64,000 bases of DNA. Source: Escherichia coli 042 (lineage in GTDB: Bacteria > Pseudomonadota > Gammaproteobacteria > Enterobacterales > Enterobacteriaceae). Below, in pieces: positions 1-55,736 of the stretch. The stretch is from assembly GCF_000027125.1 (NCBI RefSeq), contig NC_017626.1; one strand, written 5' to 3'. The notes under the pieces are model-generated. The model worked only from the letters and a program-made list of their open reading frames with translations, did no database searches and was not told the origin of the DNA. The position numbers and the translations under genes were made by a program. The stretch's first letter is position 1; each line of letters opens with the position of its first letter.

Positions 1-985
1 GCGTTTTGCTTTTCTGACTCAGGGCGGAGCGGCACCAGAAACGCCAAATCCGCGCCTGCCACCACTCGATTCCGGCATTCTTGGCGGCTACATTGCGCCC
101 GATAATCTCACCATAACGTTATCGGTGGGCCACTCATTGTTTGATGAGCGCTTTGGCCTTGCGCCACAGATGCCGAAAAAGTTGCAGAAGATGACGCGTT
201 TCCCCAACGACTCGCTAGATGCAGCGTTATGTCATGGTGATGTGTTGCTACAAATTTGCGCCAACACCCAGGATACGGTGATCCATGCGCTGCGCGATAT
301 CATCAAACACACGCCGGATTTGCTCAGTGTGCGCTGGAAGCGGGAAGGGTTTATTTCCGATCACGCGGCGCGTAGTAAAGGCAAAGAGACGCCGATAAAT
401 TTGCTGGGTTTCAAAGACGGCACTGCCAATCCCGATAGCCAGAATGATAAGTTGATGCAACAAGTGGTGTGGGTGACGGCAGATCAGCAGGAGCCTGCGT
501 GGGCTATCGGCGGCAGCTACCAGGCGGTGCGGTTGATTCAGTTTCGGGTGGAATTTTGGGACAGAACGCCGCTGAAAGAACAGCAGACGATATTTGGGCG
601 TGATAAGCAAACCGGCGCGCCGCTGGGAATGCAGCATGAGCATGATGTGCCTGATTACGCCAGCGATCCGGAGGGGAAGGTGATCGCGCTGGACAGCCAT
701 ATCCGGCTGGCGAATCCCCGCACGGCGGAGAGTGAGTCCAGCCTGATGCTGCGTCGTGGCTACAGTTATTCACTGGGCGTCACCAACTCCGGACAACTGG
801 ATATGGGGCTACTGTTTGTCTGCTATCAACACGATCTGGAAAAAGGCTTCCTGACAGTACAAAAAAGGCTCAATGGCGAAGCGCTGGAGGAATACGTTAA
901 ACCTATCGGCGGCGGTTATTTTTTTGCGCTGCCGGGGGTGAAGGACACGAACGATTATCTCGGAAGCGCGTTATTGCGGGTTTAA
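1..985 (+). CDS. efeB: Dyp-type peroxidase EfeB, 5'-truncated by window edge (C-terminal ~328 codons present)
   Basis: Reading frame is open from position 2 to the stop at 985; the ORF-track M at 125 is internal. Translation matches the Dyp-peroxidase family. Confidence 0.85.
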
Positions 986-994
986 TGTTTTCAG

Positions 995-1125
995 GCGGAT
1001 AAGGCGTTCGTGCCGCACCAGGCGTTCGTGCGCTGATGCGACGCATGCGCGTCTTATCATGCCTACAATCGGTGCGGGTCGGTAGGCCGGATAAGGCGTT
1101 CACGCCGCATCCGGCAAGCTTTTAC
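995..1125. repeat. REP/BIME cluster (repetitive extragenic palindromes) in the efeB-phoH intergenic region
   Basis: Repeated GGATAAGGCGTTCGTGCCGCA / GCCGGATAAGGCGTTCACGCCGCATCCGGCA palindromic units. Confidence 0.8.
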
Positions 1126-1167
1126 CAGCCCTGCGAATCCTGCTGAAAGCACACAGTTTTTTTATCA

Positions 1168-1186
1168 CTGTCATCACTCTGTCATC
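1168..1186 (+). promoter_or_regulatory. Pho box (PhoB binding site) upstream of phoH
   Basis: Tandem CTGTCAT-N4-CTGTCAT direct repeat about 150 bp upstream of the phoH start. Confidence 0.7.
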
Positions 1187-1334
1187 TTTCCAGTAGAAAC
1201 TAATGTCACTGAAATGATGTTTTATAGTTAAATATAAGTGAATATAATGTTGCAATGAATGCGAGATCTGTTGTAATTATTAAGTAGCAGCGGAAGTTCC
1301 CGGCAGTGATAGTCAGTCACTATGGAGATCGCGG

Positions 1335-2399
1335 ATGGTAACGTCCTGTAGTGGACATGTTTTAGATAATCAACGCGCCACCACTCGCGGAGATTTCTCC
1401 TCCGGTAGTCATCTCGTCACTTTGCATTTTCAACCTCATCCTTTCTTTTCTTGTGTTACCGACGCCGTAAACGGTGCGCGTAGCCGTTTTTCGGCATTTT
1501 ATCCAAAAGCAAACTATGGCTTACAAGGAAGCCAACCCTCTGATGTTCGTGCGCATAATCGCGCTGCCAACGGCGCGTGTGATGAATACAAACAACTCAA
1601 GGTGCTCTCCATGGGAAGACAAAAAGTAGTGATCAAAGCTCGTCGCGAGGCAAAACGTGTGCTGAGACGGGATTCGCGCAGCCATAAGCAGCGTGAAGAA
1701 GAATCGGTCACCTCGCTTGTGCAGATGAGCGGCGTAGAAGCCATTGGTATGGCCCGCGACAGTCGCGATACCTCGCCCATCCTCGCGCGAAATGAAGCGC
1801 AATTGCACTATCTGAAGGCTATTGAGAGTAAGCAGCTGATATTCGCCACGGGCGAAGCCGGGTGCGGAAAAACCTGGATCAGCGCAGCAAAAGCGGCAGA
1901 GGCCCTGATACATAAGGATGTCGACAGGATTATCGTCACCCGTCCAGTTCTGCAAGCCGATGAAGATCTTGGCTTCTTACCTGGAGATATCGCAGAAAAG
2001 TTTGCTCCCTATTTTCGTCCGGTCTACGACGTGCTGGTCCGGCGCTTAGGGGCTTCTTTTATGCAGTACTGCCTGCGACCGGAAATAGGGAAGGTGGAAA
2101 TTGCGCCGTTCGCCTATATGCGTGGACGTACCTTTGAAAATGCAGTCGTCATTCTTGACGAGGCGCAGAATGTGACTGCCGCGCAAATGAAAATGTTTTT
2201 AACCCGCCTCGGGGAGAACGTGACGGTTATCGTCAACGGTGATATCACGCAATGCGATTTGCCTCGCGGCGTGTGCTCCGGATTAAGTGACGCGCTGGAA
2301 CGTTTCGAAGAAGATGAAATGGTCGGCATCGTCCGATTCGGTAAAGAGGATTGCGTACGTTCGGCACTTTGCCAACGTACGCTACATGCATACAGTTAA
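1335..2399 (+). CDS. phoH: PhoH, phosphate-starvation-inducible ATPase
   Basis: 354-aa ORF with Walker A motif GEAGCGKT; PhoH family. Confidence 0.9.
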   Translation: MVTSCSGHVLDNQRATTRGDFSSGSHLVTLHFQPHPFFSCVTDAVNGARSRFSAFYPKANYGLQGSQPSDVRAHNRAANGACDEYKQLKVLSMGRQKVVIKARREAKRVLRRDSRSHKQREEESVTSLVQMSGVEAIGMARDSRDTSPILARNEAQLHYLKAIESKQLIFATGEAGCGKTWISAAKAAEALIHKDVDRIIVTRPVLQADEDLGFLPGDIAEKFAPYFRPVYDVLVRRLGASFMQYCLRPEIGKVEIAPFAYMRGRTFENAVVILDEAQNVTAAQMKMFLTRLGENVTVIVNGDITQCDLPRGVCSGLSDALERFEEDEMVGIVRFGKEDCVRSALCQRTLHAYS

Positions 2400-2417
2400 G
2401 TGTATTATCGGCGCAGA

Positions 2418-2446
2418 GCCCGGGCGAACCGGGCTTTGTTTTATTT
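2418..2446 (+). terminator. Rho-independent terminator after phoH
   Basis: GCCCGGGCGAACCGGGC hairpin followed by a T-run. Confidence 0.7.
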
Positions 2447-2985
2447 CATTAACAGCAAAGACTTTCACTTCAGGTTAACGTTCAGGGGGGCGACTTTGAG
2501 CGTGTTGATAAGCTGAAATGAATTCTGGTTTAGATACTCTTACCAGGCATTTTTCGTCATAGCACCCGACCAGTGTAATGCCGCCAGCGCGGAGAGTTTT
2601 TCTTCCAGAAGCCCAAAAAGCGAGTATCTGCCTATCTTTTTCCAGCCATTCAACCTGTACAGGAGGTCTGGTGCCAATTTTGCGTATGAGGTTTAATCAA
2701 CAATGGGCCAAAATTTGACTGACTGATTAACACCGAATATATTCTCCTGATTTTTTTTAGGGATAATATTAAAAATATAAGGTTAATCTTAATTAATTTT
2801 TTGGCTAATATTGTGTGTTGTTATTTTTTGTGGACGGCAAGCCGCAATGGCAAAATAGGGATGGTTGTAATAATCAAAACATGATACTAACTATATATAG
2901 ATCGTTGAATTGTTGGCATGTAACTCGCTACAGCGAGTAGCGTTAGTAATGAAATATAATCAACATGGATAGGTGAAGATTAATT

Positions 2986-3672
2986 ATGAGCTTTATGGTT
3001 TTTGTAACTTGTTTGACAATTGCATTTGTCGCCGGTTTTGCTGTTGCCAGAAAATTGACACTCCGAAAAGTTGCCTCATCGGTAATCATCACTAAATCGC
3101 AACCAGTCCCTTCCTCTGCAACTTCCCCTGCTGCTAAGGCGTCGACAAGGAGCTATACACCGCAGAAAACCTATCGTGACTCTCGTTGGCAAGAACGAGA
3201 TGAGTTATTTCAGGGAATGGTTGCCGAAGGTATTTTATTGGAAGGAAAAGAGTGGTTAATTACGCGTTGTGAAAAAATCTATTTTGATAATCTGGAGAAA
3301 TGGTTTGGACATTATTGTCATATCCATTGCCAGGTCTCTCTGGGGCGCTTGATCAACTTTCCAGAACAACCCGAGTTTAGCGAAGAAGAAAGAAAGCGTT
3401 TCTTTGCAATTTATAATGGAATGGCAATGGATTATGTTCTGGTTTCAAAGAAGAACAACAAAATAGTCTGTGTTATTGAGCTGGATGATCCGAGTCATGA
3501 AAGGGCAGATCGCATTATTCGTGACCGTTGGTTGAATACGATTATGACTATTGCACGGGTGCCTTTTGTACGAGCTTCTGTCACTAAATTGGATGAAATC
3601 CCTCCGGTCTGGGATACCCGTGACAAAATTCGCCCATTAGCCGTGGCGACAAAGGGTGAACCGTTGCATTAA
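2986..3672 (+). CDS. Hypothetical membrane-anchored protein with a C-terminal DUF2726-like (PD-(D/E)xK nuclease-like) domain
   Basis: 228-aa ORF. N-terminal hydrophobic helix (FMVFVTCLTIAFVAGFAVA), then a Ser/Thr/Pro-rich linker, then a C-terminal domain with the motif VIELDDPSHERADRIIRDRW. Preceded by about 300 bp of AT-rich DNA. Family assignment is from motif recall only. Confidence 0.6.
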   Translation: MSFMVFVTCLTIAFVAGFAVARKLTLRKVASSVIITKSQPVPSSATSPAAKASTRSYTPQKTYRDSRWQERDELFQGMVAEGILLEGKEWLITRCEKIYFDNLEKWFGHYCHIHCQVSLGRLINFPEQPEFSEEERKRFFAIYNGMAMDYVLVSKKNNKIVCVIELDDPSHERADRIIRDRWLNTIMTIARVPFVRASVTKLDEIPPVWDTRDKIRPLAVATKGEPLH

Positions 3673-3765
3673 CTAATGTACCCCGGTCGGGGCTTCTCAT
3701 CCCCCCGGTGTGTGCAATATACGAAAAAAAAAGCCCGTACCTTCGTACGAGCTCTTCTTTAAAGA

Positions 3766-3853
3766 TGGCGGTGAGGGGGGGATTCGAACCCCCGATACGT
3801 TGCCGTATACACACTTTCCAGGCGTGCTCCTTCAGCCACTCGGACACCTCACC
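3766..3853 (-). tRNA. serX: tRNA-Ser (anticodon GGA)
   Basis: Minus-strand 88-nt sequence GGTGAGGTGTCCGAGTGGCTGAAGG...GGTTCGAATCCCCCCCTCACCGCCA, with long variable arm and CCA end. Confidence 0.9.
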
Positions 3854-4047
3854 AAATTGTCGTTCCTGTCTTGCTGGAACGGGCGCTAATTTAGGGAAAT
3901 CATGACCTGAGGTCAACAAACTTTTTTAAAAAATCGCGCGTTTATTCAAACTTCAATCAATATGCAGTTTTAATAAGCGAAATCTGCTTTTTTTGCCACC
4001 GACCACGGATTTGTTATGCTGGTGGTCTTTGTAGATCATAACGATAA

Positions 4048-9397: not shown

Positions 9398-10151
9398 GAT
9401 GAAACCCCGCTTTTTTTATTGATCGCACACCTGACAGCTGCCTCTAAAATAGAAGCACCAGAAGTACTGACAGATGTTGCACTGCTGTGTGTAGTAATAA
9501 ATCAGCCCTAAATGGGTAAAATATAAAACTAATGGATTACATCTGATTTCAATCTAGCCATTACAAATCTTAAATCAAGTGTTAAACATGTAACTAAATG
9601 TAACTCGTTATATTAAAATGTTAAACTTAAGGTTTTATTAAGTTTAGAAATGATAGAAAAGTTGTACATTTGGTTTTTATTGCACAATTTTAAAAAATCA
9701 TACAAATGGTGCTAACTTACTAATAATGCATATAAAAAATATTTCGGTGTAGTCCTTTCGTCATGTAAAACGTTCTTGTTTTTTCTTCACACCTCCGTGG
9801 ACAATTTTTTACTGCAAAAAGACGAGGTTTGTCACGGCTTGTGCGCAAGACATATCGCAGCAATCAGCGACGGGCAAGAAGAATGGCTGTCTGGTGATTT
9901 TTGATTGCGGAAAACGGAGATTTAAAAGAAAACAAAATATTTTTTTGCGTAGATAACAGCGTATTTACGTGGGTTTTAATACTTTGGTATGAACAAAAAA
10001 AGAAAAATACAACGCGCGGGTGAGTTATTAAAAATATTTCCGCAGACATACTTTCCATCGTAACGCAGCGTTAACAAAATACAGGTTGCGTTAACAACCA
10101 AGTTGAAATGATTTAATTTCTTAAGTGTACGACCAGGTCCAGGGTGACAAC
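9398..10151. promoter_or_regulatory. csgD–csgB divergent intergenic regulatory region (csgDEFG and csgBAC promoters, long csgD 5' UTR)
   Basis: About 750 bp of AT-rich non-coding DNA between divergent operons. Established knowledge: one of the most heavily regulated E. coli promoter regions (OmpR, CpxR, IHF, H-NS, RpoS; several sRNAs target the csgD leader). Confidence 0.8.
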
Positions 10152-10647: not shown

Positions 10648-11103
10648 ATGAAACTTTTAAAAGTAGCAGCAATTGCAGCAATCGTATTCTCCGGTAGCGC
10701 TCTGGCAGGTGTTGTTCCTCAGTACGGCGGCGGCGGTAACCACGGTGGTGGCGGTAATAATAGCGGCCCAAATTCAGAGCTGAACATTTACCAGTACGGT
10801 GGCGGTAACTCTGCACTTGCTCTGCAAGCTGACGCCCGTAACTCTGATCTGACCATTACCCAGCACGGCGGCGGTAACGGCGCAGATGTTGGCCAAGGTT
10901 CTGATGACAGCTCAATCGATCTGACTCAGCGTGGCTTCGGTAACAGCGCTACTCTTGATCAGTGGAATGGTAAAGATTCTACTATGACTGTTAAACAGTT
11001 CGGTGGCGGTAACGGTGCTGCTGTTGACCAGACTGCATCTAACTCCAGCGTTAACGTCACTCAGGTTGGCTTTGGTAACAACGCGACCGCTCATCAGTAC
11101 TAA
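10648..11103 (+). CDS. csgA: Major curlin subunit CsgA
   Basis: 151 aa, signal peptide plus five imperfect Q/N-rich repeats (S-x5-Q-x-G-x-G-N-x-A). Confidence 0.95.
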   Translation: MKLLKVAAIAAIVFSGSALAGVVPQYGGGGNHGGGGNNSGPNSELNIYQYGGGNSALALQADARNSDLTITQHGGGNGADVGQGSDDSSIDLTQRGFGNSATLDQWNGKDSTMTVKQFGGGNGAAVDQTASNSSVNVTQVGFGNNATAHQY

Positions 11104-15424: not shown

Positions 15425-19607
<4,183 letters not shown>

Positions 19608-19614
19608 AAACGTA

Positions 19615-19720
19615 GTTGCCTGATGCACTACGCTTATCGGGCCTACATCGCTCCTGCAATGTGTTGATTTTGCAAGATTTTGTAGGTCGGATAAGGCGTT
19701 CACGCCACATCTGGCAAAAA
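19615..19720. repeat. REP/BIME elements in the opgH–yceK intergenic region
   Basis: GCCTGATGCACTACGCTTATCGGGCCTAC and GTAGGTCGGATAAGGCGTTCACGCCACATCTGGCA palindromic units. Confidence 0.75.
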
Positions 19721-19779
19721 CAACGAGCCAATAAAAATACCGGCGTTATGCCGGTATTTTTTTACGGAAGAGGTATCAA

Positions 19780-28811: not shown

Positions 28812-28916
28812 TAATCTCTATGCTCCGGCTGAAGGGATGTTTTTGCCGGACACAAAGGATAAGCGGAAACGTTTTCCTTTGCACGAAAAATAAAGGGCGC
28901 GAATGCGCCCTCGTGA

Positions 28917-35617: not shown

Positions 35618-36034
35618 TCAGATCGAAATCTTTTTACTGCCGCGATGGGTTGTTGAGGTCTGACCGTTCGCTCCATATAGCGTCGGTTCCTGATGCGGTT
35701 TCAACATTTCCAGCGCCTGTTGATTGCGCTCAATCTGTCCTTCCAGTAACCAGCCGTTATGTTGATTCATTTGGCGTAGTTGCTGCGTTTTCACAGTAAT
35801 TTCCTGCCAGCGTTGACTAATATCAACGCTATTTGCTGCATTGGGTTCTTTCCTGCGTAACTGTTCGAGGTAATCCAGCGTCGCCAGCAGAGAGCTTTTT
35901 TGTTCTGTAATCCATTGCAACTGGCTGCCGTTGATCTGCCCCATAGAGAGATGTTGCTGCTCTTGATCCATTACCGTTTTGAGATCGTTAAGCACAGCGG
36001 ACATCTGGTCGAGGATCTCTGCAAGACGCGTCAT
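35618..36034 (-). CDS. flgN: Flagellar export chaperone FlgN
   Basis: 138 aa. Confidence 0.92.
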   Translation of the reverse strand: MTRLAEILDQMSAVLNDLKTVMDQEQQHLSMGQINGSQLQWITEQKSSLLATLDYLEQLRRKEPNAANSVDISQRWQEITVKTQQLRQMNQHNGWLLEGQIERNQQALEMLKPHQEPTLYGANGQTSTTHRGSKKISI

Positions 36035-51352: not shown

Positions 51353-51715
51353 CGTAACTTACTCATTATTCTTACATTGACGACTAAGCTGCGGGCAAAG
51401 TAACGCCTTTCCGGGTGTGAACCGATGGCCTCGTGTCTAGTCGCGTCGCCAACCTCACGGTTATCGTTAGCTCAAAGAGGCGCAGAGTGTCGGTTGCCCG
51501 TTTTTCATGCGGAAAAACAGCGCAATTATCAAAGAAACAGACTGGGTATTACTCTCCAGAAATATTTCCATCTACCGGTAAGGACTGCAACCCGCAGCCC
51601 GCTAACTGCCTGAAAGATCAATACGTCTTACGCCATTGCTGCGTGGATGATCGGTCGGGCAAAATGGGTTATTCCGTAAAATTTCTTGTTTTAACAAGGA
51701 TGGACACGGAAACGG
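51353..51715 (-). promoter_or_regulatory. rne 5' leader (autoregulatory long 5' UTR)
   Basis: Long non-coding region upstream of rne. Established knowledge: a ~360-nt structured leader mediates RNase E autoregulation. Boundaries approximate. Confidence 0.5.
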
Positions 51716-51924: not shown

Positions 51925-52884
51925 ATGAAAACAGAGACTCCATCCGTAAAAATTGTTGCTATCACCGCTGACGAAGCGGGGCAACGTATCGATAACTTTT
52001 TGCGTACCCAATTGAAAGGCGTACCAAAAAGTATGATTTACCGTATTTTGCGTAAAGGCGAAGTGCGGGTGAACAAAAAACGTATTAAGCCTGAATATAA
52101 ACTCGAAGCGGGTGATGAGGTGCGTATCCCACCGGTTCGCGTTGCTGAACGGGAAGAAGAGGCGGTTTCGCCACATCTGCAAAAGGTGGCAGCGCTGGCG
52201 GACGTCATCTTATATGAAGATGACCATATCCTGGTGCTGAATAAACCTTCCGGTACGGCGGTACATGGCGGCAGTGGTTTAAGCTTCGGCGTTATCGAAG
52301 GTTTGCGGGCGTTGCGCCCGGAAGCGCGGTTCCTTGAACTGGTTCATCGTCTCGACCGGGACACTTCAGGTGTGTTGCTGGTAGCGAAAAAACGCTCGGC
52401 GTTGCGTTCTCTGCATGAGCAATTACGTGAAAAAGGGATGCAAAAAGATTACCTGGTGCTGGTGCGCGGTCAGTGGCAGTCGCATGTGAAGAGCGTTCAA
52501 GCGCCGTTGCTGAAAAATATTCTGCAAAGCGGCGAACGTATCGTGCGTGTGAGTCAGGAAGGCAAACCGTCGGAAACACGCTTTAAAGTGGAAGAACGCT
52601 ATGCTTTTGCCACCCTGGTGCGTTGTAGCCCGGTAACAGGGCGTACTCATCAGATCCGTGTTCATACACAGTATGCGGGTCATCCGATTGCCTTTGACGA
52701 TCGCTACGGTGACCGTGAATTTGACAGACAGCTCACTGAAGCCGGCACGGGATTAAATCGTCTGTTCCTGCACGCCGCAGCGTTGAAGTTTACCCATCCG
52801 GGGACCGGTGAGGTGATGCGTATCGAAGCGCCGATGGATGATGGTTTGAAGCGTTGTTTGCAAAAACTGCGTAACGCGCGCTAA
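51925..52884 (+). CDS. rluC: 23S rRNA pseudouridine synthase RluC
   Basis: 319 aa, S4 domain plus RluA-family catalytic motif (HRLDRDTSG). Confidence 0.92.
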   Translation: MKTETPSVKIVAITADEAGQRIDNFLRTQLKGVPKSMIYRILRKGEVRVNKKRIKPEYKLEAGDEVRIPPVRVAEREEEAVSPHLQKVAALADVILYEDDHILVLNKPSGTAVHGGSGLSFGVIEGLRALRPEARFLELVHRLDRDTSGVLLVAKKRSALRSLHEQLREKGMQKDYLVLVRGQWQSHVKSVQAPLLKNILQSGERIVRVSQEGKPSETRFKVEERYAFATLVRCSPVTGRTHQIRVHTQYAGHPIAFDDRYGDREFDRQLTEAGTGLNRLFLHAAALKFTHPGTGEVMRIEAPMDDGLKRCLQKLRNAR

Positions 52885-52932
52885 TACGAGCATATAAGCA
52901 TGATAATGGGCGGTTGGCCTGATAAGGCGTTT

Positions 52933-53687
<755 letters not shown>

Positions 53688-53791
53688 ATCAGCATACTTG
53701 TCCTTAGCCTTCTGCAGTGACAGCTGGTAGTACAGCGTGCTTCTGGCCAGCCCTGCAGCCTTTAACAGGTCAGACTGGCAGTGTCCGCACC

Positions 53792-54322
53792 TCAGGCTCC
53801 GGATGACTTTCGTTTTTTCTCCAGCTCCTGGCGCTTTTTTTCCAGGAGATGCTCCTGCATGGCTTTCAGATATGCATTTTCTGCGCGAAGATAACGCAGC
53901 TCATTCTTCATCTCTTCCGGCGTCATGTTTGCCTCGTTTTCATGGGTATCATCAGAACGGGTCATGCTTTTCTCCTTCCTGCGCCTGATAAAGGCCTCAT
54001 TACCAGATTTGCGGTAGCCTTTTATCCAGTTTTTAACCGTGTTGTGGCTGGGAATGTTAAACCGGGCAGCTACCCGGGGTAGAGACTCAGAATGCCCGAG
54101 AGCATAAAGAACCACGCAAAGTTTATCTTCAGGAGAATAGCTACGCTTGTGTCTGCAATCCAGTGCCCGAGGACCGTGAAGAAGAAAAAGATTAATCCAG
54201 TGTGAGAGGCTGGTGTGAGAAAGTTGAAAGAGTTTTGCCGTAGAAATGATGCCTGCATGACCAGCCAGGTAATGATTTACAGCGGCAAGTTTTACTTCAA
54301 ATGAATGTTTCATAAACTGCAC
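53792..54322 (-). CDS. IS3-family transposase OrfA (HTH DNA-binding subunit)
   Basis: 176 aa with a leucine-zipper-like C-terminus; slippery A AAA AAG near the 3' end for a -1 frameshift into orfB. Confidence 0.85.
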   Translation of the reverse strand: MQFMKHSFEVKLAAVNHYLAGHAGIISTAKLFQLSHTSLSHWINLFLLHGPRALDCRHKRSYSPEDKLCVVLYALGHSESLPRVAARFNIPSHNTVKNWIKGYRKSGNEAFIRRRKEKSMTRSDDTHENEANMTPEEMKNELRYLRAENAYLKAMQEHLLEKKRQELEKKRKSSGA

Positions 54323-54364
54323 CTTCAGATGTCAGATTATGTCCAACATTTGGGGTGCAGTTCA

Positions 54365-54425
54365 GTTTACGCCGCATCAGGCTGCCAGCACCGATTGCCG
54401 GATGCGACGTAAACGCATCCGGCGC
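54365..54425. repeat. REP palindromic units flanking (and split by) the IS
   Basis: GTTTACGCCGCATCAGGC pairs with GCCTGATAAGGCGTTT on the other side of the IS; a second unit GCCGGATGCGACGTAAACGCATCCGGC follows. Confidence 0.8.
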
Positions 54426-54431
54426 AGAAAA

Positions 54432-55016
54432 CTATCCCATCAGCGGGTTTTTCCCTTCCCGACGTAACATCTGACACAGCGCGATTAGCGGTAAACCAAC
54501 CAGCGTGTTAGGATCACGCCCCTCTAAACGCTCAAACAGCGTAATGCCAAATCCTTCACTCTTAAAGCTACCCGCGCAGTGCAGGGGATGCTCTTTACGC
54601 ACGTAATTATCAATCTCCGCCTCGCTCAGGTGACGGAAATGGACGTCAAAAGGCTCCACTTCTGTTTGCAGATGCCCATTCGCCGAATTAAACAACGCCA
54701 GCCCAGTATAGAAGGTGACGATATTGCCGCTGGCTTTGCGTAATTGCAGACGGGCATTTTCTTCCGTTAACGGTTTACCGGTGATTTCGCCATCAAGAAC
54801 ACATACCTGGTCTGAACCAATAATTAAATGATCCGGATAACGTGACGCCAGAGATTGCGCTTTTTCTTGTGCCAGTCGAAGCACCAACTGTCGCGGTGAT
54901 TCGTCGCCGCGTGGGGTTTCGTCGACCTCGGGTGCTGCACATTCAAAAGAGATTTGCAGTTTTTCCAGAAGAGCGCGACGCCAGGGCGAGGTGGAGGCTA
55001 AAATAAGTTTAGGCAT
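54432..55016 (-). CDS. yceF: Maf-like nucleotide pyrophosphatase YceF
   Basis: Start trimmed to [14 protein letters not shown] (194 aa). Confidence 0.88.
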
Positions 55017-55029
55017 ATTTTTTTCCATC

Positions 55030-55736
<707 letters not shown>

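Follow-up and report, generated by a model that had tools for sequence, protein, structure and literature searches.

The REPs of Escherichia coli are imperfect palindromes of 30-40 nt that carry an internal stem mismatch and a GTAG at their foot, and 584 of them have been reported for strain K-12 (PMC3333891). BIMEs are built from such units: BIME-1 joins a z1 and a y unit in opposite orientation across a long linker that often holds an IHF site, and in BIME-2, z2 and y units follow one another in tandem across short linkers, their number being variable (PMC3333891). Among the Z units, Z2 is the long form (PMC2817692). An influence of REPs in general on mRNA stability is established (PMC1525189, PMC3333891, PMC3184786), and binding and cleavage by DNA gyrase is described in the literature as a property of BIME-2 (PMC3333891, PMC2817692, PMC3184786). 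Moreover, REPs are targets of mobile elements. IS1397, an IS3-family element of natural E. coli isolates, is reported from experiments to insert specifically into REPs, and its transposase is what sets the specificity (PMC1525189, PMC3184786). IS621, of the IS110 family, likewise targets E. coli REPs (PMC1525189, PMC3184786), but its insertions fall beyond the inverted repeat, at the 3′ side of the element (PMC3184786).

Here, we analysed a stretch of 64,000 nucleotides (the window), which is a segment of the E. coli chromosome running from efeB to fabF. Its gene order is shared with K-12 from opgG to fabF, and several RefSeq genomes match its first 4 kb at 100% identity. The original prediction had placed palindromic REP units in the efeB–phoH, opgH–yceK and rluC–yceF spacers (sites 1, 2 and 3), one unit being split by an IS. 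We are nearly certain that all three sites consist of ordinary REP clusters of E. coli arranged as BIMEs, and that the Y unit at site 3 carries an intact IS1397 in its loop. They share with the known Y, Z1 and Z2 REPs the same consensus, the GTAG head, the mismatched palindrome, the extragenic 3′ position, the alternating orientation and the linker types, and with known E. coli BIMEs the high copy number and the strain-variable number of units. Nothing essential sets them apart from typical REPs and BIMEs; the particularities are two degraded units (993-1025 and 54396-54423) and the Y/Y pairing at site 3.

To locate the units, a REP profile HMM was built from six REPs of other loci and other genomes, which are the targets of other IS1397 copies; sequences of the window were kept out of the training because circularity had to be avoided. 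The scan revealed seven REP units in the window, one of them as two halves, and no match with E<0.1 fell outside efeB–phoH (993-1116), opgH–yceK (19617-19716) and rluC–yceF (52913-54423). The next-best match in the scan of the 64-kb window had an E of 0.26. The REP head motif GTAGGCCKGATAAG, with at most one mismatch, was found five times against 0.02 expected (0/100 shuffles reached five), and all five matches fall within the three sites. For the 13-mer given in the original prediction, allowing at most two mismatches, the window held 7 matches, where 1.87 were expected. When hairpin folding was compared with shuffles, six of the seven units passed (z -2.5 to -5.8), the failing one being 990-1027 (z 0.04), and the Y units folded with a 2-nt AA/GC internal loop in the stem. 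An exact GTAG stands in four units (at 1082, at 19682, and as the reverse complements of 1063-1066 and 19643-19646); it is missing from units 993-1025 and 54396-54423 and from the split Y (52913/54382), which reads GTTG, as it does in K-12. All seven units are extragenic, lying between annotated genes at gene 3′ ends. The K-12 RefSeq record lists no curated REP features for this region.

The palindromic REP units are thus present in the three spacers for which they had been claimed and nowhere else in the window, with none overlooked, and the gene names given there (efeB/phoH, opgH/yceK, rluC/yceF) were right. Several lines of evidence back their identity as REP/BIME: the statistics of the motif, the folding, the alignment to the consensus, the extragenic position and the copy number across the genome. 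Careful alignment, which had been set beforehand as the refuting test, upheld the palindromic consensus, since all seven units align in a common orientation with the published K-12 Y and Z2 consensus (PMC2817692). The consensus wording of the original prediction fits the Y-type units only and not the inverted units 1033-1068 (Z2) and 19617-19646 (Z1).

At site 1, the spacer between efeB and phoH holds the following features.

983-985: stop codon of efeB
993-1025, + strand: decayed Y-type REP (unit a), 7 nt past the efeB stop codon
1033-1068, - strand: inverted Z2-type REP (unit b), with CTAC at 1063-1066 as read on the + strand
1067-1081: head-to-head linker between Z2 and Y, 15 nt, read from the sequence
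1082-1116, + strand: canonical Y-type REP (unit c), with a GTAG head and an AA/GC internal stem mismatch
1335: start of phoH

Unit a is 72% identical to the unit at 1082 and scored 18 bits with the HMM (E 1.4e-4); according to the folding model, its REP hairpin is no longer formed in this strain. Unit b has one mismatch to the head motif, fits the Z2 consensus and folds into a hairpin of -17.3 kcal/mol (HMM E 1.5e-6; z -2.85). Unit c matches the head motif without mismatch (HMM E 1.1e-8), and its hairpin reaches -21.3 kcal/mol (z -4.27). The 140 nt of the site have a median of at least 39 matching places per genome, with at least 40 in 2801 records, and the locus itself is present in 5350 of the 5426 genomes.

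REP copy number at this site, which the original prediction had proposed to compare across strains, differs between them. In ESBLEC_HM24 a single Y unit is left and a 92-nt deletion corresponds to the spacing of two direct Y units; SCU-152 retains nothing but a remnant; strain E1 has an intact orthologue of unit 993-1025; and in K-12 the first unit is more decayed and a partial fourth unit is added. This variation in unit number is consistent with recombination between direct units or with the gain of tandem units, and the claim that such sites are hotspots of recombination and copy-number change gains support at site 1 from the one strain whose 92-nt deletion runs exactly between two direct Y units. 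Z2 and Y units, short linkers and a unit number that varies between strains are all found here, and the site is BIME-2-like, in the order decayed Y, inverted Z2, Y.

Site 2, between opgH and yceK, is laid out differently:

19605-19607: stop codon of opgH
19617-19646, - strand: short, inverted Z1-type REP (unit a), which begins 10 nt past the opgH stop codon
19647-19681: long head-to-head linker of the L type, 35 nt
19682-19716, + strand: Y-type REP (unit b); the HMM span starts at 19680
19733-19763: terminator-like hairpin whose 12-bp stem is preceded by an A-run and followed by a T-run (fold of 19600-19775)
19780: start of yceK

The inverted unit, 19617-19646, has one mismatch to the head motif, an HMM E of 0.059 and a hairpin z of -2.48. 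We take it to be a Z1, by elimination together with the Z1 consensus. In the K-12 orthologue of the site, the layout is the same and the Z1 palindrome is cleaner. The elimination is possible because Z2 is the long form (PMC2817692). Unit 19682-19716 likewise has one mismatch to the head motif (HMM E 4.6e-7), and its hairpin of -15 kcal/mol has a z of -3.85. In the linker, a pattern match to the IHF consensus AATCAACACATTG lies at 19657-19669 on the - strand. There are 6 such matches in the window against 2.6 expected, a number equalled by 7/100 shuffles; with no significant enrichment in the window, the IHF consensus was dropped as stand-alone evidence. Judged by its sequence, site 2 fits a BIME-1 in single copy, composed of an inverted Z1, a long linker with a putative IHF consensus, and a Y.

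The same linker gave a match to the Rfam family ES036/CssrF (RF02751), at 19639-19681 on the - strand, with 41.5 bits, above the gathering score of 37.6. Since the consensus of the ES036 model is a linker of the site-2, BIME-1 type followed by a REP head, this 'sRNA family' appears to describe the long linker repeat of BIME-1, and the likeness of the site-2 linker to it is one of sequence only. A literature search on ES036/CssrF found only unrelated papers. Per genome, this linker is found at a median of 2 places and at 7 at most. Megablast with site 2 alone gave about 1 place per genome, a low count that is no argument against repeat status, because point changes break the 28-nt words.

The hairpin at 19733-19763, between the site-2 BIME and yceK, looks in the folding model like a bidirectional intrinsic terminator. 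A simple terminator scan flagged only its - strand version; the + strand version was missed, and we suspect that the A/T extension of the scan had consumed the T tail. A separate terminator-like hairpin downstream of the BIME would place the BIME inside the 3′ untranslated region of opgGH.

At site 3, between rluC and yceF, the IS lies within a REP unit:

52882-52884: stop codon of rluC
52913-52932, + strand: left half of a Y-type REP (unit a), in which GTTG replaces GTAG
52929-52932, + strand: left copy of the target duplication, GTTT, the last 4 nt of the left half
52933-54364, - strand: IS1397 of the IS3 family, 1432 bp long; its ends read TG...CA and its terminal inverted repeats are imperfect
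54365-54368, + strand: right copy of the target duplication, GTTT, the first 4 nt of the right half
54365-54382, + strand: right half of the Y-type REP (unit a); the HMM span is 54366-54382
54396-54423, - strand: inverted Y-derived REP (unit b), 8 nt past the stop codon of yceF
54432-54434, - strand: stop codon of yceF

K-12 carries an intact palindrome, GCCTGATAAGGCGTTTACGCCGCATCAGGC, where the window carries the IS, and the REP unit predicted to be split between rluC and yceF is indeed unbroken in K-12 at that place. Because GTTT stands on both sides of the element and the K-12 palindrome is unbroken, the insertion can be assigned to the apical loop of the Y unit, with a duplication of 4 bp. 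The neighbouring unit, 54396-54423, is without TAAG and without the GTAG head, and a near-perfect palindrome remains (HMM E 0.0012; hairpin -20.5 kcal/mol, z -5.78). The layout of the site is thus a Y and an inverted Y-derived unit, tail to tail, and having two Y-type units instead of a Y with a Z makes it an 'atypical' BIME. The coding sequences of rluC and yceF are both uninterrupted by IS1397; we infer that rluC of this strain has lost its downstream Y hairpin and that yceF keeps its own.

The transposase of the element is encoded on the - strand, with orfA starting at 54313, a -1 frameshift at AAAAAAAG into orfB, and the coding end at 52965. Pfam domains were found in orfA (HTH_28/HTH_Tnp_1) and in orfB (rve/rve_2/rve_3), both frames are open, and the element reads as intact and is probably functional. 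Matching elements are named in RefSeq 'IS3-like element IS1397 family transposase, programmed frameshift'. Compared with five full-length (1432-bp) copies that RefSeq assigns to IS1397 or the IS3 family, the element shows 96.9-99.9% identity (98-99.9% to those annotated as IS1397), and it is 1 nt apart from one annotated copy; the name IS1397 is taken here from these RefSeq-annotated copies. It has in common with the known IS1397 the same orfA, the -1 frameshift, the rve orfB, the insertion into a REP loop and the 3-4 bp duplication. IS621 differs from it on two counts: it belongs to another family, whereas the element of the window carries an IS3-type DDE transposase, and it inserts outside the inverted repeat, whereas our IS1397 lies in the loop.

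About 1706 of the 5426 complete genomes carry IS1397. The load is uneven, with a median of 2 matching places per genome, 24 in JNE12-007 and at least 40 in one record, which suggests recent bursts in a few lineages. Downstream of rrf in APEC E18055 and in UPEC132, IS1397 copies adjoin IS110-family elements or are interrupted by them, a frameshifted IS110-family transposase in the first case and ISEc21 in the second. Such neighbours may be pile-ups at the same repeats, because targeting of REPs has been reported for some members of the IS110 family, IS621 among them.

We then considered the target choice of IS1397. Nine further copies were examined, and all of them lie in REP loops (9/9; 10/10 with the copy in the window). 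The ten copies sit at the centre of the REP palindrome within about 2 nt and are flanked by duplications of 3-4 bp, which for the nine other copies read GTCA, GTGA, ACA, GCA, ATTT, TCAA, TTAC and, twice, AAAC. Six of the copies are at other loci (ssuB-pepN, yfiE-srmB, znuB-ruvB, downstream of rrf, yghU-hybG and ygcQ-ygcP), where each lies in a Y or Z2 loop, and both orientations of the REP occur.

In the rluC–yceF spacer itself, four genomes among the 5426 carry IS1397, none of them with the event of the window. For example, O78 strain 3 has the element 2 nt further along the same site-3 loop, with a TTAC duplication, and in JNE12-007 and HCP5S3_I2 it is the neighbouring unit (the equivalent of 54396-54423) whose loop holds the element, with an AAAC duplication. 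Among the five carriers, window included, this BIME has been struck at three distinct positions, and the orientation of the IS is identical in all. Compared with known IS1397 insertions, the exact event of the window (unit 3a, GTTT duplication) is strain-specific, being absent from the 5426 complete E. coli genomes (0/5426). The earlier claim that REPs served as the IS target is strongly borne out by the hairpin-loop position, the 4-bp duplication and the nine other copies in REP loops. There is also a slim chance that the rluC–yceF BIME is a preferred landing site of IS1397 beyond the general specificity for REPs. If so, something in the local context, for instance convergent transcription or supercoiling, could render certain REPs much better targets than the rest.

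Two other explanations of these sites have to be weighed against the REP reading. The palindromes lie at gene 3′ ends and have stable folds, as would be expected were they locus-specific intrinsic terminators or chance hairpins outside the REP family. We find this scarcely credible, however: no unit has a T-run after it, the terminator scan called no terminator at site 1, and at site 2 a separate terminator hairpin comes after the BIME. Moreover, a profile built from other loci detects the units, which share sequence with each other, with the published consensus and with dozens of places per genome. Similarly, there is just one insertion in the window, and by itself it might be a coincidence, so that the IS might adjoin a REP by chance and the REP have had no role in the choice of target. 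This too we regard as extremely improbable, given that 10/10 copies are centred, within about 2 nt, on a REP palindrome and have duplications of 3-4 bp, and that REPs make up only ~0.4% of the genome (584 K-12 REPs, PMC3333891, of roughly 35 nt each). The experiments reported in PMC1525189 and PMC3184786, which show specificity for REPs, also speak against it. We therefore retain the reading of the three sites as REP clusters, one of which was the target of IS1397.

As to what these BIMEs may do, the three sites lie just past stop codons, where two of them separate genes of the same direction and the third separates convergent genes; they would be transcribed into 3′ untranslated regions. In such regions, REP transcripts can fold into GC-rich hairpins, and published work suggests that, as RNA, these hairpins would slow the 3′-to-5′ decay of the upstream message. 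As DNA, by the same kind of published work, a BIME-1 may bind IHF and a BIME-2 may bind gyrase. The spread of REPs would have proceeded via a REP-associated Y1 transposase, and REPs would be recognised by the IS1397 transposase itself, as published work proposes. At site 3, an intact IS1397 entered the Y unit at its apical loop, and 4 bp (GTTT) were duplicated. The position of the three sites at 3′ ends is consistent with a role in mRNA stability, as far as this analysis goes.

Besides mRNA stability, the BIMEs could act in two further ways. It is unlikely, in our view, that they are sources of sRNAs, be it ES036/CssrF-type RNAs from the site-2 linker or naRNA4-like nucleoid-associated RNAs from Y-Z2 pairs. 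The idea draws on the Rfam match of ES036 above its gathering score at 19639-19681 (-) and on the scores of the naRNA4 model, 42.8 bits at site 1 and 54.3 bits at the intact K-12 site 3. The family naRNA4 (RF02564) describes a transcript of a Y REP, a linker and a Z2 iREP, and its model aligns to the Y-Z2 pair of site 1 as well as to site 3 in its intact form. The matches to this family (CssrE) are:

993-1063, in the window: sub-threshold naRNA4 match
1085-1119, in the window: sub-threshold naRNA4 match
19685-19764, in the window: sub-threshold naRNA4 match
35932-36004, in the comparison segment L002: sub-threshold naRNA4 match

None reaches the gathering score of 59.5 bits (42.8, 39.5 and 34.7 in the window; 54.3 at K-12 site 3), and they reflect merely shared REP sequence, the matches of the window being relatives of naRNA4 via the repeat and not that locus. 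Against an sRNA source at site 2 stand, in addition, that no promoter-like site was found there and that no paper on ES036 was found; furthermore, a match to a family concerns sequence and is no guide to expression. Somewhat more plausible, if still doubtful, is that REPs close to stop codons stall ribosomes during termination and so reduce expression of the gene upstream, a model that Liang, Rudd and Deutscher are said to have put forward in 2015. The distance from stop codon to hairpin is short (10 nt for opgH, 8 nt for yceF and 7 nt for efeB), and the hairpins next to opgH and yceF are stable, but the unit next to efeB is decayed in this strain. A literature search on stop-codon-proximal REPs and trans-translation found nothing.

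It should be noted that the surroundings of the sites also vary between strains. Positions 1-4000 of the window were matched over at least 80% in only 1039 of the 5426 genomes. In the window, the interval from phoH to tRNA-Ser holds a DUF2726-domain gene, at about 2400-3900; in K-12, the same interval spans about 11 kb with pgaABCD, dgcT, IS3D, ymdE and ycdU. The poly-N-acetylglucosamine biofilm operon seems missing from the phoH–tRNA-Ser position in this strain. At 2201-2394 on the - strand, antisense to the 3′ end of phoH, the Rfam family Ysr251, a Yersinia antisense sRNA, matched with 191 bits. Direct repeats with GGCGGCGGTAAC, of a period of about 69-135 nt, lie at 10728-11030, at the position of csgB/csgA in K-12; they are presumably known curlin repeat units, and by gene order we take the region to be csgB/csgA. 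Other Rfam elements were found in their usual places:

9453-9544: ES056
28812-28861: pyrC leader
51377-51713: rne 5′ UTR
55010-55178: SraB

Taken as a whole, the finding of REPs and BIMEs with an IS1397 inserted is already known in kind and matches long-published biology. The new facts are at the level of strains only, namely an insertion absent from 5426 complete genomes and a BIME that was targeted independently in other strains. For annotation, the three spacers can be labelled as REP/BIME and the mobile element as IS1397, with rluC and yceF undisrupted; otherwise the finding is of little import. The window nevertheless offers a clean example of the published rule that insertion of IS1397 is confined to the loops of REP hairpins, and the number of BIME units and the occupancy by IS at these loci can act as strain markers.
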